The position numbers were made by a program, and so were the translations under genes. A DNA stretch of 64,000 bases, from the NCBI GenBank assembly GCA_036524055.1, contig DATDCZ010000029.1, positions 1,042 to 65,041 of the forward strand, given 5' to 3'. This stretch comes from Anaerolineales bacterium (GTDB taxonomy: Bacteria; Chloroflexota; Anaerolineae; Anaerolineales; Villigracilaceae). The notes beneath the pieces were generated by a model. That model made no database searches. It saw nothing but the letters and a program-made list of their open reading frames with translations, and was not told the origin of the DNA. Shown in pieces: positions 3,126-60,763 of this stretch. Each line of letters opens with the position of its first letter. Position 1 is the stretch's first letter.

Positions 3126-3845
3126 ATGAAGTTAAGCGGCGCATCGTCCGCAGAGGTACTCGAATTCCTGCGCGTCGTCCCCCTATTCTCGAAGATCAAT
3201 GGCTCCACGGCCAGAAACCTGGCCACCCAGTGCCACTTTCGCCATTTCGACAAGGGCGAACGGATCTTCCACGAATCCGACATGGCCGAGTGCGCCTTCC
3301 TGGTGCGTTCCGGGAAGATCTCCATCATCCTTAACAGCACCGATGGCCGTGAGCTGGTTATCGACGAAATGCGCCCCGGCGACATTCTGGGGGAGGTCGG
3401 TCTCTTAACTCGGACAAGCCACACCGCCAGCGCCGTTGCGCGTACACATTGCGAAGTTCTCGCTCTTCCCCGCGAGCTTTTCCTCCGCATGATCGATGAC
3501 GAGCCGGTCCTTGCACGCCGGATTCTGGATGTCACGGCCCATCGCCTGCAGCGGAGCGCCGTCCGCGAGACCGCCCTGGCATTCCTGGACGCCCAGGCCC
3601 GCCTCGCCCGCTACCTCCTTGCCTTGGAGGCCGAAGAGCATGACAAGGGCTATGTGACCGCCTCGCAGGAGGATCTGGCTCGGGGAACGGGCCTCATTCG
3701 CCAAACGGTCGCCAAGGTGCTGGGCAGGTGGCGTCGCGACGGCTGGCTTCTGACGGGCAGGGGAAGGGTTCTGCTCCTCAACCGTAAGGCTTTGGAGCAG
3801 ATCGAGAGAGGCGATATTTCGGTCTCGCTTGTGTCGCCGAGGTGA
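3126..3845 (+). CDS. Crp/Fnr-family transcriptional regulator (cNMP-binding domain + C-terminal HTH)
   Basis: VPLFSKINGSTARNLA...FDKGERIF.E.D...FLVRSGKISI is a cNMP-binding beta-roll. C-terminal ASQEDLARGTGLIRQTVAKVL is an HTH. ATG 3126 chosen over TTG 3048 because family members start about 10-15 aa before the VPLF motif. Confidence 0.85.
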   Translation: MKLSGASSAEVLEFLRVVPLFSKINGSTARNLATQCHFRHFDKGERIFHESDMAECAFLVRSGKISIILNSTDGRELVIDEMRPGDILGEVGLLTRTSHTASAVARTHCEVLALPRELFLRMIDDEPVLARRILDVTAHRLQRSAVRETALAFLDAQARLARYLLALEAEEHDKGYVTASQEDLARGTGLIRQTVAKVLGRWRRDGWLLTGRGRVLLLNRKALEQIERGDISVSLVSPR

Positions 3846-3916
3846 CAGACAGCCGGCGAACACTGACCTATACTGCGGGTAACGTTGAGACCGGAATGAC
3901 CAAAAAGGAGCCCGCA

Positions 3917-4903
3917 ATGAAGGTCGCGAAGAAGGTCCTGAAGAAGCTCTCCGCAGTTCGGGCCGTCCTGCCCAACGACGAGCGCGAAGTTCTCGACGCT
4001 ATCGTCCTTGGGGAGGTTCACGCCCACAAGTTCGGCAAGGTCGGTAAAGCGGGAAAAGCCAGCAAGGCTGGCAAAACCCAGGTCAAGGCGCACAAATTCG
4101 GCAAGTCCGTCGGCAAAGCCGCGAAGGCAGGCGGCAAGACACAGGTGAGGGCACACATGTTTGGTAAGGTCGGCAAGGTTGGGAAGGCCGCCAAGGCGGA
4201 TAAGACCCAGGTCAAGGCTCACATGTTCGGCAAGGTCGGCAAGGTTGGCAAGGCCGCCAAGGCGGATAAGACCCAGGTCAAGGCTCACATGTTCGGCAAG
4301 GTCGGCAAGGTTGGCAAAGCCGCCAAGGCGGACAAAACCCAAGTGAAGGCCCACAAGTTTGGCAAAGTTGGTAAGGTCGGCAAGGCTGACAAGACCGCCA
4401 AGCAGGTGAAGGCTCACAAGTTTGGCAAGGTCGGCAAGATCGGAAAAGCCGATAAGACCGCCAAGCAGGTGAAGGCTCACAAGTTTGGCAAGGTTGGCAA
4501 GGTCGGCAAGGCTGACAAGACCGCCAAGCAGGTGAAGGCTCACAAGTTTGGCAAAGTCGGCAAGGTCGGCAAGGCCGACAAGACCGCCAAGCAGGTGAAT
4601 GCTCACAAGTTTGGCAAGGTCAGCAAAGCCGGCAAGGCTGGTAAAGCCGGCAAGCAGGTCAAGGCCCACAAGGTTGGCAAGGTTGGTAAGGTCGGCAAGG
4701 TTGGTAAGGCCGGCAAGCAGGTCAAGGCCCACAAGCTGGGCAAGGTTGGGAAAGTTGGTAAGGTTGGCAAGGCTGGCAAGCAGGTCAACGCACACAAACT
4801 GGCCAAGACTAACCAGGCTCCGGCCAAGCTGATCCCTGCCACAACACTCCCTCCGATCGAGTTCGATCCGAATTCTGAGGAGTATCACCCGGTCCAGCAA
4901 TAA
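3917..4903 (+). CDS. Polycationic tandem-repeat protein: 34-aa N-terminal region, 12 x 21/22-aa Lys-rich units (consensus KAH[KM]FGKVGKVGKA(A)K(A)DKT(A)(K)QV), 38-aa Pro-rich/acidic tail
   Basis: ATG 3917 is preceded by AGGAG at 7-nt spacing. The repeat period is kept in frame (63 or 66 bp) over 768 bp, and wobble-position differences between units preserve the peptide. No family recognised. Confidence 0.7.
   Translation: MKVAKKVLKKLSAVRAVLPNDEREVLDAIVLGEVHAHKFGKVGKAGKASKAGKTQVKAHKFGKSVGKAAKAGGKTQVRAHMFGKVGKVGKAAKADKTQVKAHMFGKVGKVGKAAKADKTQVKAHMFGKVGKVGKAAKADKTQVKAHKFGKVGKVGKADKTAKQVKAHKFGKVGKIGKADKTAKQVKAHKFGKVGKVGKADKTAKQVKAHKFGKVGKVGKADKTAKQVNAHKFGKVSKAGKAGKAGKQVKAHKVGKVGKVGKVGKAGKQVKAHKLGKVGKVGKVGKAGKQVNAHKLAKTNQAPAKLIPATTLPPIEFDPNSEEYHPVQQ
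4019..4786 (+). repeat. 12 tandem in-frame DNA repeats (five 66-bp units and seven 63-bp units) inside the Lys-rich ORF
   Basis: Direct reading: units 4 and 5 (about 4204-4335) are almost identical at the DNA level, and units 6-9 (about 4336-4587) are near-identical 63-mers. A degenerate 13th unit starts at 4787. Confidence 0.9.
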
Positions 4904-37777: not shown

Positions 37778-38007
37778 GTCATTCGTCGTCGGCCTCACGG
37801 TCAAATGCCCGATCCATTGTCTGAAGCATGATATAATCTCGCCGCTCCGCGGGCAAGAAGCCCGCGCGGCCCACATCTTGCCTGGGATGGGCATCAAGCA
37901 TCCCTGAGCGGGTGAGCGTCCTTGCCGGACCCGAACCCCGCTAAACCCATATCGTGCGGCCGACTCCATGTAAGACGACGCCGGCACGACAGAAGTCAAG
38001 GAGAAAA

Positions 38008-38997
38008 ATGGCCGCAATATCCATGAAGGCCCTGCTTGAGAGCGGCGTCCACTTCGGTCACCGCACGAACAAGTGGGATCCTCGAATGAAGCCGTACATC
38101 TTCACAGAGCGTAACGGCATTCATATCATCGACTTGCAGCAGACCGTGAAGCTGCTGAACAACGCTCTTGCCATAGTACGTGATGCCGTGGCCGCGGGTG
38201 GAACCGTACTATTCGTGGGCACGAAGCGGCAGGCGCAGGAGACCATCCGGGACGAGGCTACGCGTGCCGGCATGCCCTATGTGACCGAGCGGTGGCTCGG
38301 CGGCATGTTGACCAACTGGTCAACCATGTATGCTCGCATCCAGGAGCTGGACCGCCTGGAGGGGCTGCGGGACACCGGTGAGATCAGCCGCCTAACCAAG
38401 AAGGAAGGTCTGCTGATCCAACGCGAGATCGATCGGCTCCTGATTCGGCTCTCCGGTGTGCGTAAGATGCGCCGGCTGCCTGAACTTCTTTTCGTCGTGG
38501 ATGTCAGCCGTGAAGAAGCCGCCGTCCACGAGGCGAACCTGTTGGGTGTCCCGGTCGTCGCCCTGGTGGACACCAACTGCAATCCTCAGGGAATAGACTA
38601 CGTCATCCCATCGAACGATGATGCCATCAGGGCTATCAAGCTGCTGGTCGCTAAAGTGGCCGACGCAGCCTTGGAAGGCAAGGCAATGCGCAAAGAGCAG
38701 GAACCCGAGGAGGTGCTTGAGACGGCCCATGAGGGCGCAAGTGCAATGTCTCACCTCAGGAACACCGAGCGGGTAGTGGAGTCTGACGAGGAGGTCGAGG
38801 AGGGCGCCCTTCTGGGCGAGTCGACACTTGCCAAGCTCAGCGCCACGCGGAAACCCGAGGAGGTCGCTCCAATCGGCAGCACAGAAACCGAGTCGATTGA
38901 GGGACCGAAGACTGATGTTGTGGAGCTCGACCAAGCGGCTGCGACGGCTGCCGAGGTCGCCACGCCGAAACCAGAAGCTGGGCCAGAGGGCGCCTGA
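38008..38997 (+). CDS. rpsB: 30S ribosomal protein S2 with long acidic C-terminal extension
   Basis: [22 protein letters not shown]..., [10 protein letters not shown], and DTNCNP. AAGGAG SD before ATG 38008. Confidence 0.95.
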
Positions 38998-45972: not shown

Positions 45973-46254
45973 TTAATCCGATTTCTCAGTGGATGAGGCC
46001 TCGTTTGAGATCTTTGCGGGCTTGCTCTCGTCCTTTTTTTCGGCCTTCGGGGCGGGAGATGAACTCGCGGCAGACGGTCGATGATCCGTCGAGTAGAATC
46101 CCGATCCCTTAAATACTACTCGAACCGGCGAGATCACCTTCTTGAGAGATTTCTTGCGGCACTCAGGGCACACCTGCAGCGGTGCATCGGTAAAGGCTTG
46201 TTGGCGCTCAAACTGCACCCCACAGGATCCGCACCGGTATGTATAGACTGGCAT
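45973..46254 (-). CDS. FmdB-family zinc-ribbon protein
   Basis: MPVYTYRCGSCGVQFE...CPEC...GSGFY, the canonical CxxC...CxxC FmdB N-terminus. Confidence 0.8.
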   Translation of the reverse strand: MPVYTYRCGSCGVQFERQQAFTDAPLQVCPECRKKSLKKVISPVRVVFKGSGFYSTDHRPSAASSSPAPKAEKKDESKPAKISNEASSTEKSD

Positions 46255-46443
46255 TACCTGCTCCTTGCTATTCCTACTTGCTATCGACCGTATTATAGCC
46301 CGTCGAGGGGTCTACGTATAGGCTCCGATGCCCGGTGATACAATTCTCTTACATTTGGCACGGTTGGGTCCGGAGGCCGGGTAGCAGGCGGCGATGCGGG
46401 TGCCTCATGGCCAAGGGAGCAGCGTTCTGAAATGGGAGGGCTC

Positions 46444-46686
46444 ATGCTCAGGATCGAGATCGTTTACTGCGCTGTTTGACACTACACCGACCGGGCCGTG
46501 AGCCTGGCAGGTGAACTCCTGAAGCAATTTGAGCACCTTGTTGAGGCCATCGTCCTGGTACCGTCGGACGGGGGCCGATTCGAGGTGACGGTGAACGGGA
46601 AACTGGTCTATTCCAAACTCAAGACGAACCGACATGCCCAGCCGGGCGAAGTAATCGGTTTGATCAGTGAGATCGTGGAAGGTTGA
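46444..46686 (+). CDS. SelW/Rdx-family thioredoxin-fold protein, candidate selenoprotein (in-frame TGA 46477-46479 in a C-A-V-U motif)
   Basis: ATG 46444 (SD GGGAGGG) reads MLRIEIVYCAV-TGA-HYTDRAVSLAGELL..., in frame with the 62-aa ORF called from GTG 46498. This matches the Rdx pattern IEY-C-x-x-C/U...RA..LA.ELL. A hairpin at 46485-46513 follows. Confidence 0.6.
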
Positions 46687-46689
46687 AGG

Positions 46690-47676
46690 ATGCCTAAGAA
46701 GGGAAGAGTCTTTTCCGGGGCGCGTCCAACCGGGCGACAGCACCTGGGCAACTACCTGGGCGCTATCAAGAACTACGTGGCGCTGCAGGACGAATACGAC
46801 TGCGTTTATTGCATCGTGGATCTGCACGCGCTTACGACTGTGGAAGACACCGAGAATCTCAAGCAGAATACGCACGAGATGGCGCTTGACTTTCTCGCGG
46901 CAGGGATCCGACCGCAGGAATCCATCGTGTTTGTCCAATCGCACGTGCCAGAAGTGACCGAATTGCATACCATCCTCTCGATGGTCACGCCTCTCGGGAA
47001 ACTGACGGATCTGCCCACCTTCAAGGACAAGGTACGCCAGCATCCAGACAACGTGAACTACGGGCTGGTGGGTTATCCCGTATTGATGACCGCGGATATC
47101 GTGCTCTACAAGGCGAATATCGTGCCAGTCGGAATCGACCAGGCACCTCATCTGGAATTTGCCAGGGAGATCGTGCGCAGCTTCAATCATCGATACGGCA
47201 CGAAGGTGCTCATCGAGCCGCAAATCAAGACCACCGAGTATCCCAAGGTGCTGGGGATAGACGGCAGGGAGAAGATGAGCAAGAGCCTTAATAATCACAT
47301 CGAGCTGGCTGCCACGCCAGCGGAGACCAAGAAGCGAGTCCTCGAAATGGTCACGGATCCGGCAAGAATCAAGCGGACCGATCCGGGAAATCCTGATATC
47401 TGCAATGTCTTCACGATGCACAAGGTGTTTTCGCCTCAGGCCGATATCGAAATGGTCAATATCGAGTGCCGCCGAGCAGGGATTGGTTGCGTTGACTGCA
47501 AGTCCCTTTTTGCCAAGAATCTCAACCAGCACCTTGAGCCGTTCCGGGCAAGACGCGCCGAGATCGCATCCAGGCCCGACAATGTAAACGACGTGCTCAA
47601 TGACGGCGCTAAGCGTGCCCGTACGATCGCTCAGAAGACAATGGAAGACGTGCGCGCCGCCGTGGGCCTGCCCTGA
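46690..47676 (+). CDS. trpS: Tryptophan--tRNA ligase
   Basis: SGARPTGRQHLGNYLG (HIGH-type motif), KMSKS, and the class Ic size of 328 aa. Confidence 0.95.
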   Translation: MPKKGRVFSGARPTGRQHLGNYLGAIKNYVALQDEYDCVYCIVDLHALTTVEDTENLKQNTHEMALDFLAAGIRPQESIVFVQSHVPEVTELHTILSMVTPLGKLTDLPTFKDKVRQHPDNVNYGLVGYPVLMTADIVLYKANIVPVGIDQAPHLEFAREIVRSFNHRYGTKVLIEPQIKTTEYPKVLGIDGREKMSKSLNNHIELAATPAETKKRVLEMVTDPARIKRTDPGNPDICNVFTMHKVFSPQADIEMVNIECRRAGIGCVDCKSLFAKNLNQHLEPFRARRAEIASRPDNVNDVLNDGAKRARTIAQKTMEDVRAAVGLP

Positions 47677-47708
47677 GGCGCTAAAGCCCCGCCAAGTCTG
47701 TCAATGAC

Positions 47709-48146
47709 ATGCGCGTAATTTTGCAACGAGTGAGCGAAGCCAGCGTTAGCGTGGCGGAACGGCGCATCGCGCATATTTCGCGCGGTTTACTGATCCTCCT
47801 GGGGATTGGACACGAGGATGCGCAAGAACAGGCACGCTTCCTGGCCGAGAAGATCGCGAACCTGCGCGTGTTTGAGGATATCGAGGGGAAGACCAATCTG
47901 TCGATCAAAGATGTCGGCGGGGAAGCAATCGTCGTCTCGCAGTTCACCCTCTATGCGGATGTAAGTAAAGGGCGTCGGCCGTCCTTCACCGAGGCTGCGG
48001 CGCCTTCTTCAGCAGAACCCCTGGTTGAGAAGTTCATACAACTGCTCAGAGACCAAGGCGTCCCCACGCAGACCGGAGCCTTTGGGCAACATATGCAAGT
48101 GGAGATCCACAACGACGGTCCGGTTACGATCTGGCTCGAACGCTGA
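47709..48146 (+). CDS. dtd: D-aminoacyl-tRNA deacylase
   Basis: MRVILQRV...SQFTLYAD...NDGPVT, the canonical Dtd motifs. Confidence 0.9.
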   Translation: MRVILQRVSEASVSVAERRIAHISRGLLILLGIGHEDAQEQARFLAEKIANLRVFEDIEGKTNLSIKDVGGEAIVVSQFTLYADVSKGRRPSFTEAAAPSSAEPLVEKFIQLLRDQGVPTQTGAFGQHMQVEIHNDGPVTIWLER

Positions 48147-51861: not shown

Positions 51862-53154
51862 ATGCCCAAAACCCATACGAAGACCAAACTGGCCAACGGC
51901 CTGAGCGTACTGCTGAAAGAAATCCACACAACACCGCTGATATCGCTGTGGGTCTGGTACCGCGTGGGCTCGCGAGACGAGGTTCCGCCGATCACCGGCA
52001 TCTCGCACCTGGTAGAGCACATGCAGTTCAAGGGCACGCGACGATTTCCGGCCGAGGTCATGGACAAGGCTGTGGCGCGCGAGGGCGGTACGCGCAATGC
52101 CTTCACATTCCTGGATTGGACCACGTACTTTGAGACCATGCCGGCCAACAAGATCGACCTGGCGCTGCGGCTCGAAGCCGACCGGATGGTGCACAGCCTG
52201 TTCGATGCGGGCGAGCTGGCTTCCGAACGGACCGTGGTGATATCCGAGCGGGAGGGGCATGAGAACGAACCGATGTTCCTGCTCAGCGAGGCAGTGCAGC
52301 ATGCCGCATTCCGCGTACATCCATATCACCATGAGATCATCGGCGATATGGCGGACTTGCGAACGATGCAGCGCGAGGACCTGTACCGGCATTACAAGTC
52401 CTATTACGTCCCGAACAATGCGATCATCAGCGTGGCCGGCGATTTCGATGCCGCGACCATGCTTGAGAAGATCCGCAAAGTCTTCGAGCCCATTCCTGCA
52501 GGAAACATCCCGCCGCGCCTGAGTCGGCTGGAACCGGAGCCGAGGGGCGAAACGCGGGTGACGGTGGAGGGCCCGGGCGAAACAGCCTATGTCCAGGCGG
52601 CATACCGCTTCCCACCGGCATCGCACCCGGATTTTTTCGCGCTATCCGTTCTGGACAGCCTGCTGGCGGGACCGAGCAACCTGAACATGTTCGGGGGCGG
52701 CGGCATCTCGAACAAGACATCGCGCCTGTACCGCGCGCTGGTGGATAAGCAATTCGCCGTGGGCTTTTCGGGCGGATCCAACTTGACGGTGGACCCATTC
52801 CTATACTCGATCTCGATCACCATGCATCCAAAACGAAAGCCGGAGGAGGCGCTGGCCGCGCTGGACCGCGAGATAAGCCGGATACAGAACGAGGCAGTTG
52901 CGCCGGGCGAGGTCGCCCGGGCCATCAAGCAGGCCAAGGCGAACTTTGCGTACGGAACTGAGAACATTAGCAACCAGGCTTTCTGGCTGGGGTACGCCGA
53001 GATGTTTGCCACCTATGCGTGGTTCGAGACGTACATTGACAAGCTGGCGGCAGTGACGCGGCACGAGATCCGTGAAGCGGCACAGAAGTATCTGCAACCC
53101 CGCTCGCGAGTCGTGGGAATCTATGTTCCGACCGGCAATGGTGCGGCGAAATGA
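51862..53154 (+). CDS. M16-family zinc peptidase (catalytic subunit)
   Basis: Inverted zinc motif HLVEHMQFKG (HxxEH) near the N-terminus; 430 aa. Confidence 0.9.
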   Translation: MPKTHTKTKLANGLSVLLKEIHTTPLISLWVWYRVGSRDEVPPITGISHLVEHMQFKGTRRFPAEVMDKAVAREGGTRNAFTFLDWTTYFETMPANKIDLALRLEADRMVHSLFDAGELASERTVVISEREGHENEPMFLLSEAVQHAAFRVHPYHHEIIGDMADLRTMQREDLYRHYKSYYVPNNAIISVAGDFDAATMLEKIRKVFEPIPAGNIPPRLSRLEPEPRGETRVTVEGPGETAYVQAAYRFPPASHPDFFALSVLDSLLAGPSNLNMFGGGGISNKTSRLYRALVDKQFAVGFSGGSNLTVDPFLYSISITMHPKRKPEEALAALDREISRIQNEAVAPGEVARAIKQAKANFAYGTENISNQAFWLGYAEMFATYAWFETYIDKLAAVTRHEIREAAQKYLQPRSRVVGIYVPTGNGAAK

Positions 53155-54443
53155 GCGGCCGAAGCGGCGTGCGCGATGATTGGAAGAAATCACTTCCCGG
53201 ACCGGAGAATATCCACCGCGAAGTGCTGAGCAACGGCATCACAATATTGGCGCGATCGAACTTCAGCAGCCCCTCTGTCACTATCAGCGGCTTCGTGAAG
53301 AGCGGAAGCATGCTGGATCCAGAAGCCAAGCTGGGGCTGGCCGATTTCACGACATCGGCGCTGATGCGGGGCACGCAGAAGCACAGCTTCGACGCTCTGT
53401 ACAGCGCGCTCGAATCGGTCGGGGCGAGCCTGGGACTTGACTCAGGCATGAACACGACGGGTTTCCACGGCCACGCGCTTTCAGAGGACCTGCCACTGTT
53501 GATCCGATTGCTCTCGGAGGTGCTGCGCGAGCCAACGTTCCCTGCAAAGGAAATCGAGAAGCTGCGGCACAATCTTCTTACCGGATTGGCCATACGCGCC
53601 CAGGACACGGCGGACATGGCAGACCTGAGCTTTGACAGCATCCTGTACCGCGGACATCCGTATGCGCGGCCGGAGGATGGATATCCCAAGACCATCAAAG
53701 CCATCCGACGCGAGGACCTGGTGCGCTTCCACAAGGCAAGTTTCGGTCCGAAGGGCATGGTCATGGTAGTGGTGGGCGCAGTCGATCCGAAGAAGGCAGC
53801 CGAGGTTGTGCACCGGGCGCTGGGGTCATGGAAGAACGCGGCGCAAGTCGTGTGCGAGCCGCCAGGAGATCCGCGGCCACTCCGGCAAACCACCAGGCGT
53901 CATCATAAGATCGCTGGAAAGGCGCAGGCAGACCTGATCGTCGGCACGAATGGGCCGAGGCGTACTGATCCGTTGTGGCTGCCGGCCTCACTGGGCAACT
54001 CCGTGCTGGGGCAGTTCGGGATGATGGGACGTATCGGGAAATCGGTGCGGGAAGAATCCGGATTGGCATACTACGCGTACTCCAGCGTGAGCTCGGGCCT
54101 GGGACCCGGCGCATGGACCGTGAGCGCGGGCGTGAACCCGACGAACGTTGAGAAGGCGACGGAACTGATCACGCGCGAACTACGCGGCTTTGTTGCAAGG
54201 GGCGTGACGCCGGAGGAGCTGGCTGACAACAAGGCCAACTTTGTGGGCAGGCTGCCGCTTTCGCTGGAATCCAACGCGGGCGTGGCCAGTGCGCTGCTCA
54301 ACATCGAGCGGTACCAACTGGGCATGGATTACTACCAGCGCTATGCCAGCCGCATCCGCGGCATCACGCGCGAGCAGGTGCAAGAGGCGGCGCGCAAGTT
54401 CATCGACCCCGACCGGCTGGTCATCGCGTCCGCGGGTCCGTAG
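53151..54443 (+). CDS. M16-family peptidase, non-catalytic partner subunit
   Basis: Same size and fold pattern, but the HxxEH position reads LADFTTSALMRG. The start overlaps the upstream stop (ATGA). Confidence 0.85.
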   Translation: MSGRSGVRDDWKKSLPGPENIHREVLSNGITILARSNFSSPSVTISGFVKSGSMLDPEAKLGLADFTTSALMRGTQKHSFDALYSALESVGASLGLDSGMNTTGFHGHALSEDLPLLIRLLSEVLREPTFPAKEIEKLRHNLLTGLAIRAQDTADMADLSFDSILYRGHPYARPEDGYPKTIKAIRREDLVRFHKASFGPKGMVMVVVGAVDPKKAAEVVHRALGSWKNAAQVVCEPPGDPRPLRQTTRRHHKIAGKAQADLIVGTNGPRRTDPLWLPASLGNSVLGQFGMMGRIGKSVREESGLAYYAYSSVSSGLGPGAWTVSAGVNPTNVEKATELITRELRGFVARGVTPEELADNKANFVGRLPLSLESNAGVASALLNIERYQLGMDYYQRYASRIRGITREQVQEAARKFIDPDRLVIASAGP

Positions 54444-58339: not shown

Positions 58340-59551
58340 ATGCTGCCCTTCCCCATACAACATTTCGGCCAGATGACCGTTCAACAGCCTCATCGCTCGA
58401 TACCGCTCTGGCGCGACGTGCGCGTTCTGCGCGTATTCGCGCAGGTGGCGTTCCTGGTCCTGCTGGCGCTCCTGCTCGGGTATCTTTTCCGGAACATGCT
58501 GGCTGCACTCCGGCAACAGGGCCTGGGGCTGGGCTTTTCGTTCCTGCGGCTGACGGCGGGCTTTGACATCGGGGAATACCTGATCCCGTTCAGCCGCGCG
58601 TCTTCCTATGGATCGGCGTTCATTGTGGGCCTGCTGAATACTGCCCTGGTGAGTGTATTGGGAATCATTCTGGCAACGATCCTGGGCGTGATCGTCGGTG
58701 TGGCGCGGCTCTCCAAGAACATACTTGTGCAGGGCCTGGCGCGGGCCTACATAGAGGCGCTCCGCAACGTCCCACTGCTGGTTATGTTGATCTTCTGGTA
58801 CTCAGGTCTCTTCCTGAAGCTGCCACGCGTTAATCAAGCCACGCCGGGCCCGGGCGGCGTGCTGTTCACGAACCGGGGCATTGCGATTCCGTGGGGGATC
58901 CCAACGGAGACATACCCAACGTATCTGGTGATCCTGACCGTCGGCCTGTTGGTCGCAATCATCACCGCGGCCGTGTGCATCTGGATCGGCAGAAGGACCG
59001 GACGGGGTCCGCTAGCCTGGGCGTGGTCATTGTTCGCGTTCGTGCTGGTGGCCGTGATCGGATGGATCGCGCTGCCGAGCGCGCCCTTGCTGGTGGATGC
59101 GCCGGCGCTGCAGGGTTTGCGTATCGCCGGCGGAAAGCAATTATCTCCGGAGTTCATGGCACTACTTTCAGGACTGGCCATCTATACGTCGGCATTTATC
59201 GCGGACGTGGTCAGGGCAGGCATCCAGGCAGTGCCGAAAGGGCAAGTTGAGGCGGCCAAGGCAATCGGACTGAAGGATGCCGCTGTGCTGAGATTGGTGG
59301 TGTTCCCCCAGGCCCTCAGGGTGATCATCCCGCCATTGACGGGCCATTACCTCAACCTCACGAAGAACTCATCGCTGGCAGTGGCCATCGGGTATCCCGA
59401 CCTGTTTTCCGTTGGGGGCACGGTGCTGAACCAGAGCGGGCGAGCCGTGGAGGTCATCAGCCTGGTCATGGCCGTATATCTCACCTTGAGCCTGCTGACG
59501 TCACTCCTGATGAACTGGTACAACCGCAGGCTCAAATTCGTCGAGCGATAG
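58340..59551 (+). CDS. Amino-acid ABC transporter permease (AapQ-like)
   Basis: Polytopic protein with EAA-loop EAAKAIGLKDAAVLRLVVFPQALR. Confidence 0.9.
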   Translation: MLPFPIQHFGQMTVQQPHRSIPLWRDVRVLRVFAQVAFLVLLALLLGYLFRNMLAALRQQGLGLGFSFLRLTAGFDIGEYLIPFSRASSYGSAFIVGLLNTALVSVLGIILATILGVIVGVARLSKNILVQGLARAYIEALRNVPLLVMLIFWYSGLFLKLPRVNQATPGPGGVLFTNRGIAIPWGIPTETYPTYLVILTVGLLVAIITAAVCIWIGRRTGRGPLAWAWSLFAFVLVAVIGWIALPSAPLLVDAPALQGLRIAGGKQLSPEFMALLSGLAIYTSAFIADVVRAGIQAVPKGQVEAAKAIGLKDAAVLRLVVFPQALRVIIPPLTGHYLNLTKNSSLAVAIGYPDLFSVGGTVLNQSGRAVEVISLVMAVYLTLSLLTSLLMNWYNRRLKFVER

Positions 59552-60763
59552 ATGATCGAAGCCCAAGCGCCGCGACCGCAAGACGTTCTGCCGCCGCCCG
59601 TGGAAAGGTACACGATCCTGGGGTGGATGTACCGGAACCTGTTCAGCAGCTGGTTCAATGCCCTGCTGACCTTTGCCGCGGTCGCGCTGGTGTATGCCAT
59701 CGGAAAGCCGCTGCTCACGTGGACATTCTCCCAGGCGCGATGGGAAGTTGTGTCGGTCAATATCCGGCTGTTGATGGCGGGGCAGTATCCAGTTGCAGAA
59801 CTGTGGCGTGTATGGCTGTGCGTCCATCTGCTGGCGGTGCTGGGGGGCCTGTCCTGGGGCGTTTGGGTGAGGGGTTATCGACTGGTGGGATTGATCGTGC
59901 TGGCGGCACCGCTGGGCCTGGCGGCAGCCTTGCAGGGCGGGCCGGCGCGCATTCACCTGGTCGCAGCCGCCATCGTTGCGCTGGTGGCTTACGTGCTTGG
60001 GCGGGTAGCGGGGCGCAGGATCCAGCGGACATTGATCACGCTGTGGATCGTATACCTGCCGCTGGTGCTGTTGATCGTGAATGGAATCGGCCGCGAGACC
60101 GATCCCCTGCGCCTGGTGTCCTCGAATCTGTGGGGCGGACTGCTGCTGACGCTGCTGCTCACGGCGGTTGGCATACTGGTTTCGTTCCCGCTGGGAATCC
60201 TGCTGGCGCTGGGGCGGCGTTCTCAACTGCCCATCATCCGCTGGTCGAGCATCGCGTACATTGAACTGGTGCGAGGGGTGCCGCTGGTCACGATCCTCTT
60301 CATGGCACAGATCATGCTGCCGCTGTTCCTGCCGGCGGAAATCAAGATCGACCGCGTGGTGCGCGCCATGGTGGGCATCATCCTGTTCACGGCGGCGTAC
60401 CAGGCGGAAAACATCCGGGGCGGCTTGCAAGCCATCCCCCCGGGTCAATTCGATGCGGCGAAAGCCATTGGCCTAAGCGGCATCCAAAGCATGGTGCTGA
60501 TCATCATGCCGCAGGCGCTGCGCAACGTGATCCCAGTGCTGGTGGGACAGTTCATCGCGTTGTACAAGGACACGTCGCTCGTGGCGATCGTGGGATTACT
60601 GGATCTGCTGGGAATCGCCAAGAGCATCGTGTCGCAGCCGCAATTCATCGGACTGCAGCGCGAGGCCTACCTGTTCGTAACCCTGATCTACTGGTTCCTG
60701 AGCTACTTCATGGCCCACCTCAGCCAGCGGCTGGAGGTTGCGTTGGGCGTGGGCGAGCGCTAG
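59552..60763 (+). CDS. Amino-acid ABC transporter permease (AapM-like)
   Basis: Polytopic protein with EAA-loop [24 protein letters not shown]. The ATG directly follows the upstream TAG. Confidence 0.9.

Follow-up and report, generated by a model that had tools for sequence, protein, structure and literature searches.

The locus at 46444-46686 (+ strand) of the window (by which we refer to the whole 64-kb stretch of DNA that was analysed, and which comes from a soil bacterium of the Anaerolineales, Chloroflexota) raises the question of whether a TGA triplet, placed early within a small and otherwise open reading frame, acts as an ordinary stop or may be decoded as selenocysteine (Sec), and of where the gene that harbors it begins. 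In the list of open reading frames the locus is represented only by a 62-aa ORF (46498-46686) that starts with the GTG at 46498. Translation of the window revealed a frame that runs from ATG 46444 through 80 codons to a stop (TGA 46684-46686), and that has the TGA at 46477-46479 as its sole interruption. The read-through product consists of MLRIEIVYCAV, the in-frame TGA and HYTDRAVSLAGELLKQF...IVEG (whole translation: MLRIEIVYCAV*HYTDRAVSLAGELLKQFEHLVEAIVLVPSDGGRFEVTVNGKLVYSKLKTNRHAQPGEVIGLISEIVEG, where the asterisk stands for the in-frame TGA), and its initiation codon is preceded, at a distance of 3 nt, by the Shine-Dalgarno-like motif GGGAGGG (46434-46440, +). A preliminary description of this DNA had pointed out the single interrupted frame, the 62-aa ORF as its only call and the upstream Shine-Dalgarno motif, and all three were recovered here.

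In order to assign the read-through product (the gene is hereafter termed selW) to a protein family, we ran profile searches in which cysteine was substituted for the in-frame stop. The 80-residue product was found to match the Pfam family Rdx (PF10262; E 6.3e-20, 71.6 bits, cut-off 22.6) over positions 1-73 of the 74 in the profile, and to score above the cut-off of the NCBIfam model TIGR02174 (CXXU_selWTH; 61.5 bits, cut-off 34.2), while staying below that of the narrower equivalog NF041051 (SelTWH_Campy; 78.7 bits, cut-off 88). A search of the PDB aligned it, from residue 3 onwards, with the bacterial Rdx proteins 2fa8 and 2p0g, and matched it to mouse SelW (2npb) as well. In these alignments the stretch Y-C-A-V-[TGA]-H-Y is placed against YCTQCNW (2fa8) and YCRQCNW (2p0g): Cys9 (codon TGC, 46468-46470, +; Cys in 81/81 of the sequences compared below) corresponds to the first Cys of their CxxC, and the TGA (46477-46479, +; codon 12, the candidate Sec codon) to the second one, a pairing of TGA with Cys that holds for 2fa8, 2p0g and other Rdx proteins in the PDB. 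For the fold, AF2 was applied to the orthologue P0014, which shares 65% identity with the window protein and carries Trp at the Sec site. The resulting model reached a pLDDT of 94.9 and displayed the element order of the thioredoxin-like Rdx fold (beta1-alpha1-beta2-beta3-beta4-alpha2), in which beta1 comprises residues 2-9 and alpha1 residues 12-29, the Sec position being the first residue of alpha1. The top structural matches of this model were all SelW-related (TM up to 0.93, for 2p0g), with thioredoxins scoring far lower. We thus consider it very probable that selW encodes a SelW-like (Rdx family) thioredoxin-fold protein of 80 residues with a Cys9-x-x-Sec12 motif. The physiological substrate is unclear even for characterised members of the SelW-like family (PMC1088965).

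The conservation of the locus was investigated by scanning one genome per species, which yielded 80 loci (all of them from Anaerolineales or other Chloroflexota MAGs) and, together with the window, a set of 81 sequences. Among the MAGs, one labelled Anaerolinea thermophila (L074) has the same TGA-containing gene. As a separate observation, the source organism (or a near-identical one) is present in soil metagenomes. Each of the 80 loci matches the selW product over all 80 residues, and codon 12 is TGA in 80/80 species genomes and in the window (81/81), with TGC, TGT and TGG found in none. The comparison of Cys and TGA codons in orthologues, which the preliminary description had proposed as a check, has therefore a uniform outcome. 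Coding conservation extends on both sides of the TGA, as codons 1-11 and 13-78 are kept as protein while their synonymous sites vary. Within codons 1-11 the amino acids are 75-100% conserved across the 81 sequences, and the synonymous sites are variable (Leu2 is written with six codons, Tyr8 as TAC/TAT in 52/29 sequences, Cys9 as TGC/TGT in 59/22 and Ala10 with four codons); codon 1 is ATG in 75/81.

These data bear directly on where the gene begins. The alternative in which the real gene is the 62-aa ORF from GTG 46498, with 46444-46497 as an untranslated leader or a decayed remnant and the TGA as an ordinary stop, draws on the fact that mechanical ORF calling yields exactly this ORF, that the truncated product keeps 45.4 bits on Pfam Rdx, and that the databases are filled with its counterparts: among the 365 relatives returned by a protein database search, most are 62 aa long, and the closest ones are nearly all 62-aa calls from the same internal codon (several of them under the name ‘selenoprotein W-related protein’). 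Against it stands that such a product would be devoid of beta1 and of the entire redox motif, its match being confined to profile positions 19-73 (as compared to 1-73 for the read-through product), and that codons 1-11 are under protein-level selection in the 81 sequences, which provides the upstream region (46444-46497) with the very conservation whose lack had been named beforehand as an argument against Sec decoding. Furthermore, 70/81 sequences show GGAG/GAGG in the interval -18..-4 relative to codon 1, as compared to 1/81 with such a motif before the internal GTG (codon 19), the other 80 having none there, and codon 19 is itself not always a possible start (GTG in 72/81, GTT in 7 and GTC in 1). 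As for the decayed-remnant version, a remnant would not be expected to retain the TGA in 81/81 sequences, nor an open frame to either side of it. We regard this alternative as extremely unlikely. The GTG at 46498-46500 (+) is not a real gene start, and the 62-aa ORF is an annotation artefact, as had been surmised when the gene was first described as truncated by misannotation; the triplet codes for Val19 and supplies the G-U-G of the putative SECIS apical loop (alignment columns 25-27). It is because this GTG, as part of that loop, is conserved that gene callers everywhere pick it.

The structure in question is a hairpin directly downstream of the TGA, for which an outer stem, an inner stem and a loop had been described at 46485-46513. 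In the window it folds as stated, with the inner arms CCGGGC (46491-46496) and GCCUGG (46502-46507) closing the loop CGUGA (46497-46501), and with the outer stem CACC (46485-46488)/GGUG (46510-46513) extending it (46485-46513, +). Counted from the final base of the UGA, the loop occupies nt 18-22 (i.e. a UGA-to-loop distance of 17 nt), and the core (46491-46507, +; 6-bp stem and 5-nt loop) begins 11 nt past the UGA. The 57-nt stretch from 46474 has an MFE of -19.3 kcal/mol (z = -2.46), and 3 out of 200 shuffled sequences were as stable, which makes the single-sequence fold statistic, taken alone, only moderate evidence. The consensus structure of the ungapped 81-sequence alignment consists of the inner stem alone (6 bp and a 5-nt loop, window 46491-46507), which is paired in essentially all sequences. 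Three of its pairs are invariant, pair 22:30 alternates between G-C and G-U, and compensatory changes occur at pair 18:34 (C-G in 61 sequences, U-A in 14) and at pair 21:31 (G-C in 73, A-U in 3); covariation is confined to these 2 of the 6 core pairs, the remaining four being invariant or changed on one side. The observed covariation score was reached by 0/500 shuffles, and sliding the 3' partner as a control lowered pairing from 80.6% to 16-44%. What did not withstand the comparison is the outer stem: the window shares it with only a few relatives, and three of its four pairs are standard ones in only 18-39/81 sequences, i.e. in fewer than half. The earlier description of the hairpin thus holds for its inner stem and loop, and not for CACC/GGUG as a conserved part.

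A second, codon-based line of evidence points to the same core. The codons overlapping the hairpin are strikingly uniform (Arg17 CGG in 76/81, Ala18 GCC in 79/81, Val19 GTG in 72/81 and Leu21 CTG in 74/81). When the 23 four- or six-fold degenerate selW codons whose amino acid is conserved to 95% or more are ranked by codon entropy, numbers 17, 18, 19 and 21 take the four lowest places (0.17-0.52 bits, as compared to 1.03-2.38 bits for the others), and the chance that the hairpin codons would occupy these four ranks is, by rank alone, about 1 in 8855. The synonymous entropy in codons 17-21, the lowest in the gene, is the signature of an RNA constraint superimposed on the coding one. Moreover, the loop G at 46498 (19 nt after the UGA) is invariant, and the U that follows it is at least 90% conserved.

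The resemblance of this hairpin to bacterial SECIS elements was assessed against the bSECIS model as given in a 2026 review (PMC13188914), which specifies an apical loop of 3-9 nt, an upper stem of 4-16 bp, a distance of 16-37 nt that separates the UGA from the loop, and an MFE no higher than -7.5 kcal/mol; within the first two loop positions there should be a G, with G or U as its usual successor. The window hairpin conforms to it in each respect, with a 5-nt loop, a 6-bp stem, G-U at loop positions 2-3 and a 17-nt spacing; the energy is -8.8 kcal/mol when the 17-nt core is folded by itself, and -17.9 kcal/mol when the 44 nt after the UGA are folded. The energy limit is respected by 77/81 orthologues. 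In the sequences in which Gly takes the place of Ser20 (loops CGUGG and CGUUG), an extra C-G pair closes the loop, giving rise to a 7-bp stem with a GUN triloop that still satisfies the model. In the same vein, work on the structure of SelB describes a conserved G approximately 20 nt downstream of the UGA on a stem of 6-8 bp (PMC4605307). A search of Rfam (with gathering thresholds for the whole window, and with E values of up to 10 allowed for 46380-46720) retrieved only the tRNA-Asn and a chance miRNA match; as the hairpin is covered by no curated Rfam family, this result says nothing about its status as a SECIS.

Sec decoding would require dedicated machinery, and we therefore searched for it in the available loci. 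ARAGORN detected no tRNA-Sec in the 64-kb window or in any related locus (the window contains a tRNA-Asn only), motif scans for SelD (G-C/U-G-C-K) and SelA (S-G-D-K-L-L-G-G-P-Q) over 853 kb of loci returned nothing credible, and an NCBIfam scan of the ten window ORFs of SelA-, SelB- or SelD-like size assigned them to unrelated functions (sugar kinase, malic enzyme, histidine kinase, S2, GlpX and others). Since 64 kb represents a small fraction of the genome, the missing sel genes carry no weight against Sec decoding. Indirect support for the trait comes from a comparative-genomics survey (PMC5029168), in which Anaerolinea thermophila UNI-1, a cultured relative, is credited with SelD, SelA and SelB as well as with four known selenoproteins (Tables S1 and S2 of that survey); Caldilinea aerophila is listed likewise, the number of selenoproteins being three. 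A motif scan of the window for other selenoprotein genes with an in-frame TGA produced 284 matches, almost all of which are noise in GC-rich DNA. In a comparative read-through screen over all loci selW ranked first, and the other candidates examined proved to be antisense or alternative frames of the conserved trpS and dtd genes (i.e. artefacts).

The same searches are what a reading without selenium would build upon, namely that, the genome being devoid of Sec machinery, a near-cognate or suppressor tRNA reads the UGA as Trp, Cys or Gly, perhaps with the hairpin as a stimulus. Besides the machinery not being found in the 64-kb window and approximately 850 kb of related loci, this reading may invoke the few full-length database entries, all of which show W at the Sec position (YCAVWHYT), as code-4 gene calling renders TGA, and the presence of trpS immediately downstream. 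The usage of stop codons in selW itself (TGA in 18 of the 81 sequences, i.e. the window and 17 relatives, TAA in 53 and TAG in 10) argues against it: TGA still serves as a normal stop in the lineage, and as it terminates selW in 18/81 genomes, a genome-wide reassignment of UGA (codes 4 or 25) is excluded. Furthermore, the codon specifies the second, catalytic residue of CxxC/CxxU, and in the Rdx family only Cys or Sec are functional there; TGC, TGT or TGG would be expected in some of the 80 species and are seen in none; the hairpin fits a SelB-type SECIS in size, spacing and loop G-U; and a cultured relative possesses SelA, SelB and SelD. Non-selenium read-through of this kind appears to us very unlikely.

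Under the preferred reading, in which the UGA at 46477-46479 is with high probability a selenocysteine codon used through the SelB/SECIS mechanism, the process would follow the canonical bacterial mode. The hairpin at 46491-46507 (loop CGUGA) would be bound by SelB carrying Sec-tRNA(Sec) when the ribosome is positioned at the UGA, selenocysteine would be put in at this codon in place of termination, and the product would be a small thiol/selenol oxidoreductase with its C-x-x-U at the beta1/alpha1 junction. The data show the frame, the family, the fold, the conservation of the TGA and that of the hairpin with its covariation; the dependence on SelB and tRNA(Sec), the actual incorporation of selenium and the redox function of the selW product are inferred. 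The proposal that the UGA encodes Sec in a SelW/Rdx-like C-x-x-U motif, as put forward in the preliminary description, is supported by the family match, by TGA in 81/81 sequences and by the conserved hairpin that fits the bSECIS model. We argue that the strongest point in its favor is the combination of the two features, as a UGA that 80 species retain at the catalytic Cys/Sec position, along with a SelB-type hairpin, is hard to account for without Sec decoding. As to whether the observation exceeds chance, we consider the comparative data (TGA in 81/81 sequences, coding conservation on both sides and an inner stem conserved with covariation) to be decisive.

The genomic neighbourhood adds a further layer. 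Directly downstream of selW lies trpS (tryptophanyl-tRNA synthetase; 46690-47676, +; Pfam tRNA-synt_1b, E 1e-64), followed by dtd (D-aminoacyl-tRNA deacylase; 47709-48146, +; Pfam Tyr_Deacylase, E 6.6e-56), and a gene for an FmdB-type Zn-ribbon protein is the divergent upstream neighbour (45973-46254, -; Pfam Zn_ribbon_8, E 2.8e-15). These genes occupy the same places in 77-78, 76 and 64 of the 80 relatives, respectively. A 375-aa minus-strand ORF (46405-47532) was rejected, as it is the antisense of trpS. In the window the ATG of trpS (46690) comes 3 nt after the selW stop, and a possible Shine-Dalgarno sequence of its own (GGAAGG, 46677-46682) is located within the last selW codons. Across the relatives the distance between the two genes varies between -26 and +314 nt, with at most 10 nt in roughly half of the genomes, from which it follows that the coupling is not obligatory; the tight coupling to trpS that had been claimed is thus true of the window and common elsewhere, but not universal.

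This arrangement lends itself to an explanation in which translation mostly terminates at the UGA, the 11-codon peptide and the hairpin act as a regulatory leader for trpS-dtd, and the Rdx product is minor or incidental. The selW-trpS-dtd order in about 77/80 genomes and the short gap in half of them would be in line with it, as would the generally low efficiency of Sec insertion in bacteria. It is contradicted by the conservation of the whole 80-codon frame as an Rdx protein with a confidently predicted fold, by the Shine-Dalgarno-like sequence that trpS has of its own and the variable gap, and by the outcome of searches for regulatory elements: between the hairpin and trpS (+ strand) there is no terminator-like site and no antiterminator element, and neither a T-box nor any other Rfam element was matched at selW-trpS in the window. 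The probability of such a leader seems to us minimal. The linkage of selW with trpS and dtd could nevertheless be functional, either because the Rdx selenoprotein has the enzymes of tRNA charging and proofreading as its targets or partners, or because UGA decoding tunes the expression of TrpRS. The basis for this suggestion is the conserved gene order and, for about half of the genomes, a gap that does not exceed 10 nt, nothing more, and we hold it to be improbable; if true, UGA decoding (selenium-dependent, and in competition with near-cognate Trp-tRNA) would tie the selenium/redox status of the cell to the fidelity of UGA/Trp decoding. A search of the literature for a link between SelW and trpS, or for the gene order selW-trpS-dtd, found none. 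The conserved order is the only slightly unusual point of the locus, and a small unexplained extra.

The main value of these results resides in the correction of annotation, as public genomes and metagenomes of Anaerolineales list selW and dozens of its orthologues in a wrong form, either as 62-aa fragments without the catalytic C-x-x-U, or as code-4 artefacts with Trp at the Sec position. In both forms the records conceal a selenoprotein that is apparently universal in an abundant lineage of soil, sludge and sediment, and by implication these organisms would depend on selenium and carry the Sec-decoding trait. Moreover, the 81-sequence alignment offers a clean natural case of a minimal 17-nt bacterial SECIS superimposed on coding sequence, and may serve as a test case for SECIS predictors. 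The knowledge of selenocysteine decoding itself is left as it was before.

With respect to known systems, SelW-like C-x-x-U proteins have been recognised as bacterial selenoproteins for about two decades. In the Sargasso Sea data no other selenoprotein family was as abundant (PMC1088965), and few Cys-containing homologues of them occur in Sec-using organisms (PMC1794560). With these proteins (TIGR02174/PF10262; PMC1088965, PMC1794560) selW shares the length of approximately 80 aa, the C-x-x-U right after beta1, the small coding-region hairpin after the UGA with a G in its apical loop, and the scarcity or lack of Cys forms in Sec users. There is no difference in kind; here the gene is apparently fixed in a clade of Anaerolineales (80/80 species genomes) and heads a selW-trpS-dtd run. 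The Cys-containing Rdx proteins of solved structure (Agrobacterium Atu0228, 2fa8; Vibrio cholerae, 2p0g; Streptomyces SAV_2001, 3dex) have the same fold and the same location of the redox motif (TM 0.88-0.93 and rmsd 1.2-1.4 A to the orthologue model, at about 32-35% identity), and differ in that their CxxC is specified by ordinary Cys codons without a SECIS and their chains are longer (~105 aa, with a longer C-terminus). Mouse SelW (2npb) is more distant (~24% identity, TM 0.77) and has in common the Rdx fold and the C-x-x-U at the beta1/alpha1 junction, whereas the mammalian selenoprotein W gene relies on a SECIS in the 3'-UTR, with SBP2 and eEFSec, and not on a coding-region hairpin bound by SelB. 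As for the RNA element, the selW hairpin resembles the E. coli fdhF type and the bSECISearch consensus by its position directly 3' of the UGA within the ORF, and by a spacing and energy that are within the model. The elements of the fdhF type have a stem of 6-8 bp and a conserved G approximately 20 nt after the UGA; in selW the G stands at 19 nt and is followed by U. The experimentally defined minimal element of E. coli fdhF is also 17 nt long and also begins 11 nt after the UGA. In its primary sequence the selW hairpin bears no relation to the elements of E. coli, and its 6-bp core shows no evident bulged U; we consider it a candidate SelB site. As selW displays every feature of the SelW-like family that could be examined, it is best viewed as a wrongly annotated member of a known family, and not as a new kind of selenoprotein.

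The Sec position of the SelW-like gene (selW, window 46444-46686, plus strand; in-frame TGA at 46477-46479) is occupied by TGA in all 80 genome loci examined. The 'full-length' relatives retrieved from the databases (P0001, P0003, P0004, P0006, P0007, P0012, P0014 and P0024) all carry tryptophan at this position (YCAVWHYT), which is probably a product of gene calling under genetic code 4 (in which TGA is translated as Trp) on short metagenome contigs. Taken together with the many relatives truncated to 62 aa (called from the codon equivalent to the internal GTG at 46498), these Trp-bearing calls mean that the selenoprotein is present in public protein sets in two different wrong forms. Furthermore, the comparative screen for in-frame TGA codons was dominated by antisense and alternative frames, such as a 375-aa open frame antisense to trpS (46405-47532, minus strand), the translation of which is conserved among relatives only because trpS itself is conserved. 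Frames of this kind would lead astray any naive Sec/Cys search in the present GC-rich lineage.

The gene order selW-trpS-dtd (46444-48146) was found to be kept in approximately 77 of the 80 Anaerolineales/Chloroflexota species genomes (loci L006-L085), and a divergent Zn-ribbon gene lies upstream of selW in 64 of the 80. The codons for the C-terminal ...VEG of selW (GAA GGT), which are conserved, also form an SD-like GGAAGG for trpS in many genomes. A literature search combining SelW, tryptophanyl-tRNA synthetase, operon and selenoprotein returned no paper in which all four were brought together.

Elsewhere in the window, a candidate 353-aa ORF (3842-4903, plus strand; overlapped by a 433-aa minus-strand ORF) is made up mostly of a lysine-rich repeat of 21 residues (KAHKFGKVGKVGKADKTAKQV), present in some 10-12 copies and seen in the DNA as the tandem repeat at 4129-4797 (period 63 bp, matches 84-86%), and gave no Pfam match above threshold. 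Two pairs of neighbouring equal-length plus-strand ORFs (430 + 430 aa, overlapping by 4 nt, at 51862-54443; 403 + 403 aa, abutting, at 58340-60763) suggest tandem paralogues. The ribosomal protein S2 gene (37954-38997, plus strand) encodes 347 aa, and as the S2 domain ends at about residue 244-248, the product bears a C-terminal extension of approximately 100 residues, for which there is a partial match to the S2 'sunset domain variant' model of NCBIfam, at a score well under the model's cut-off.
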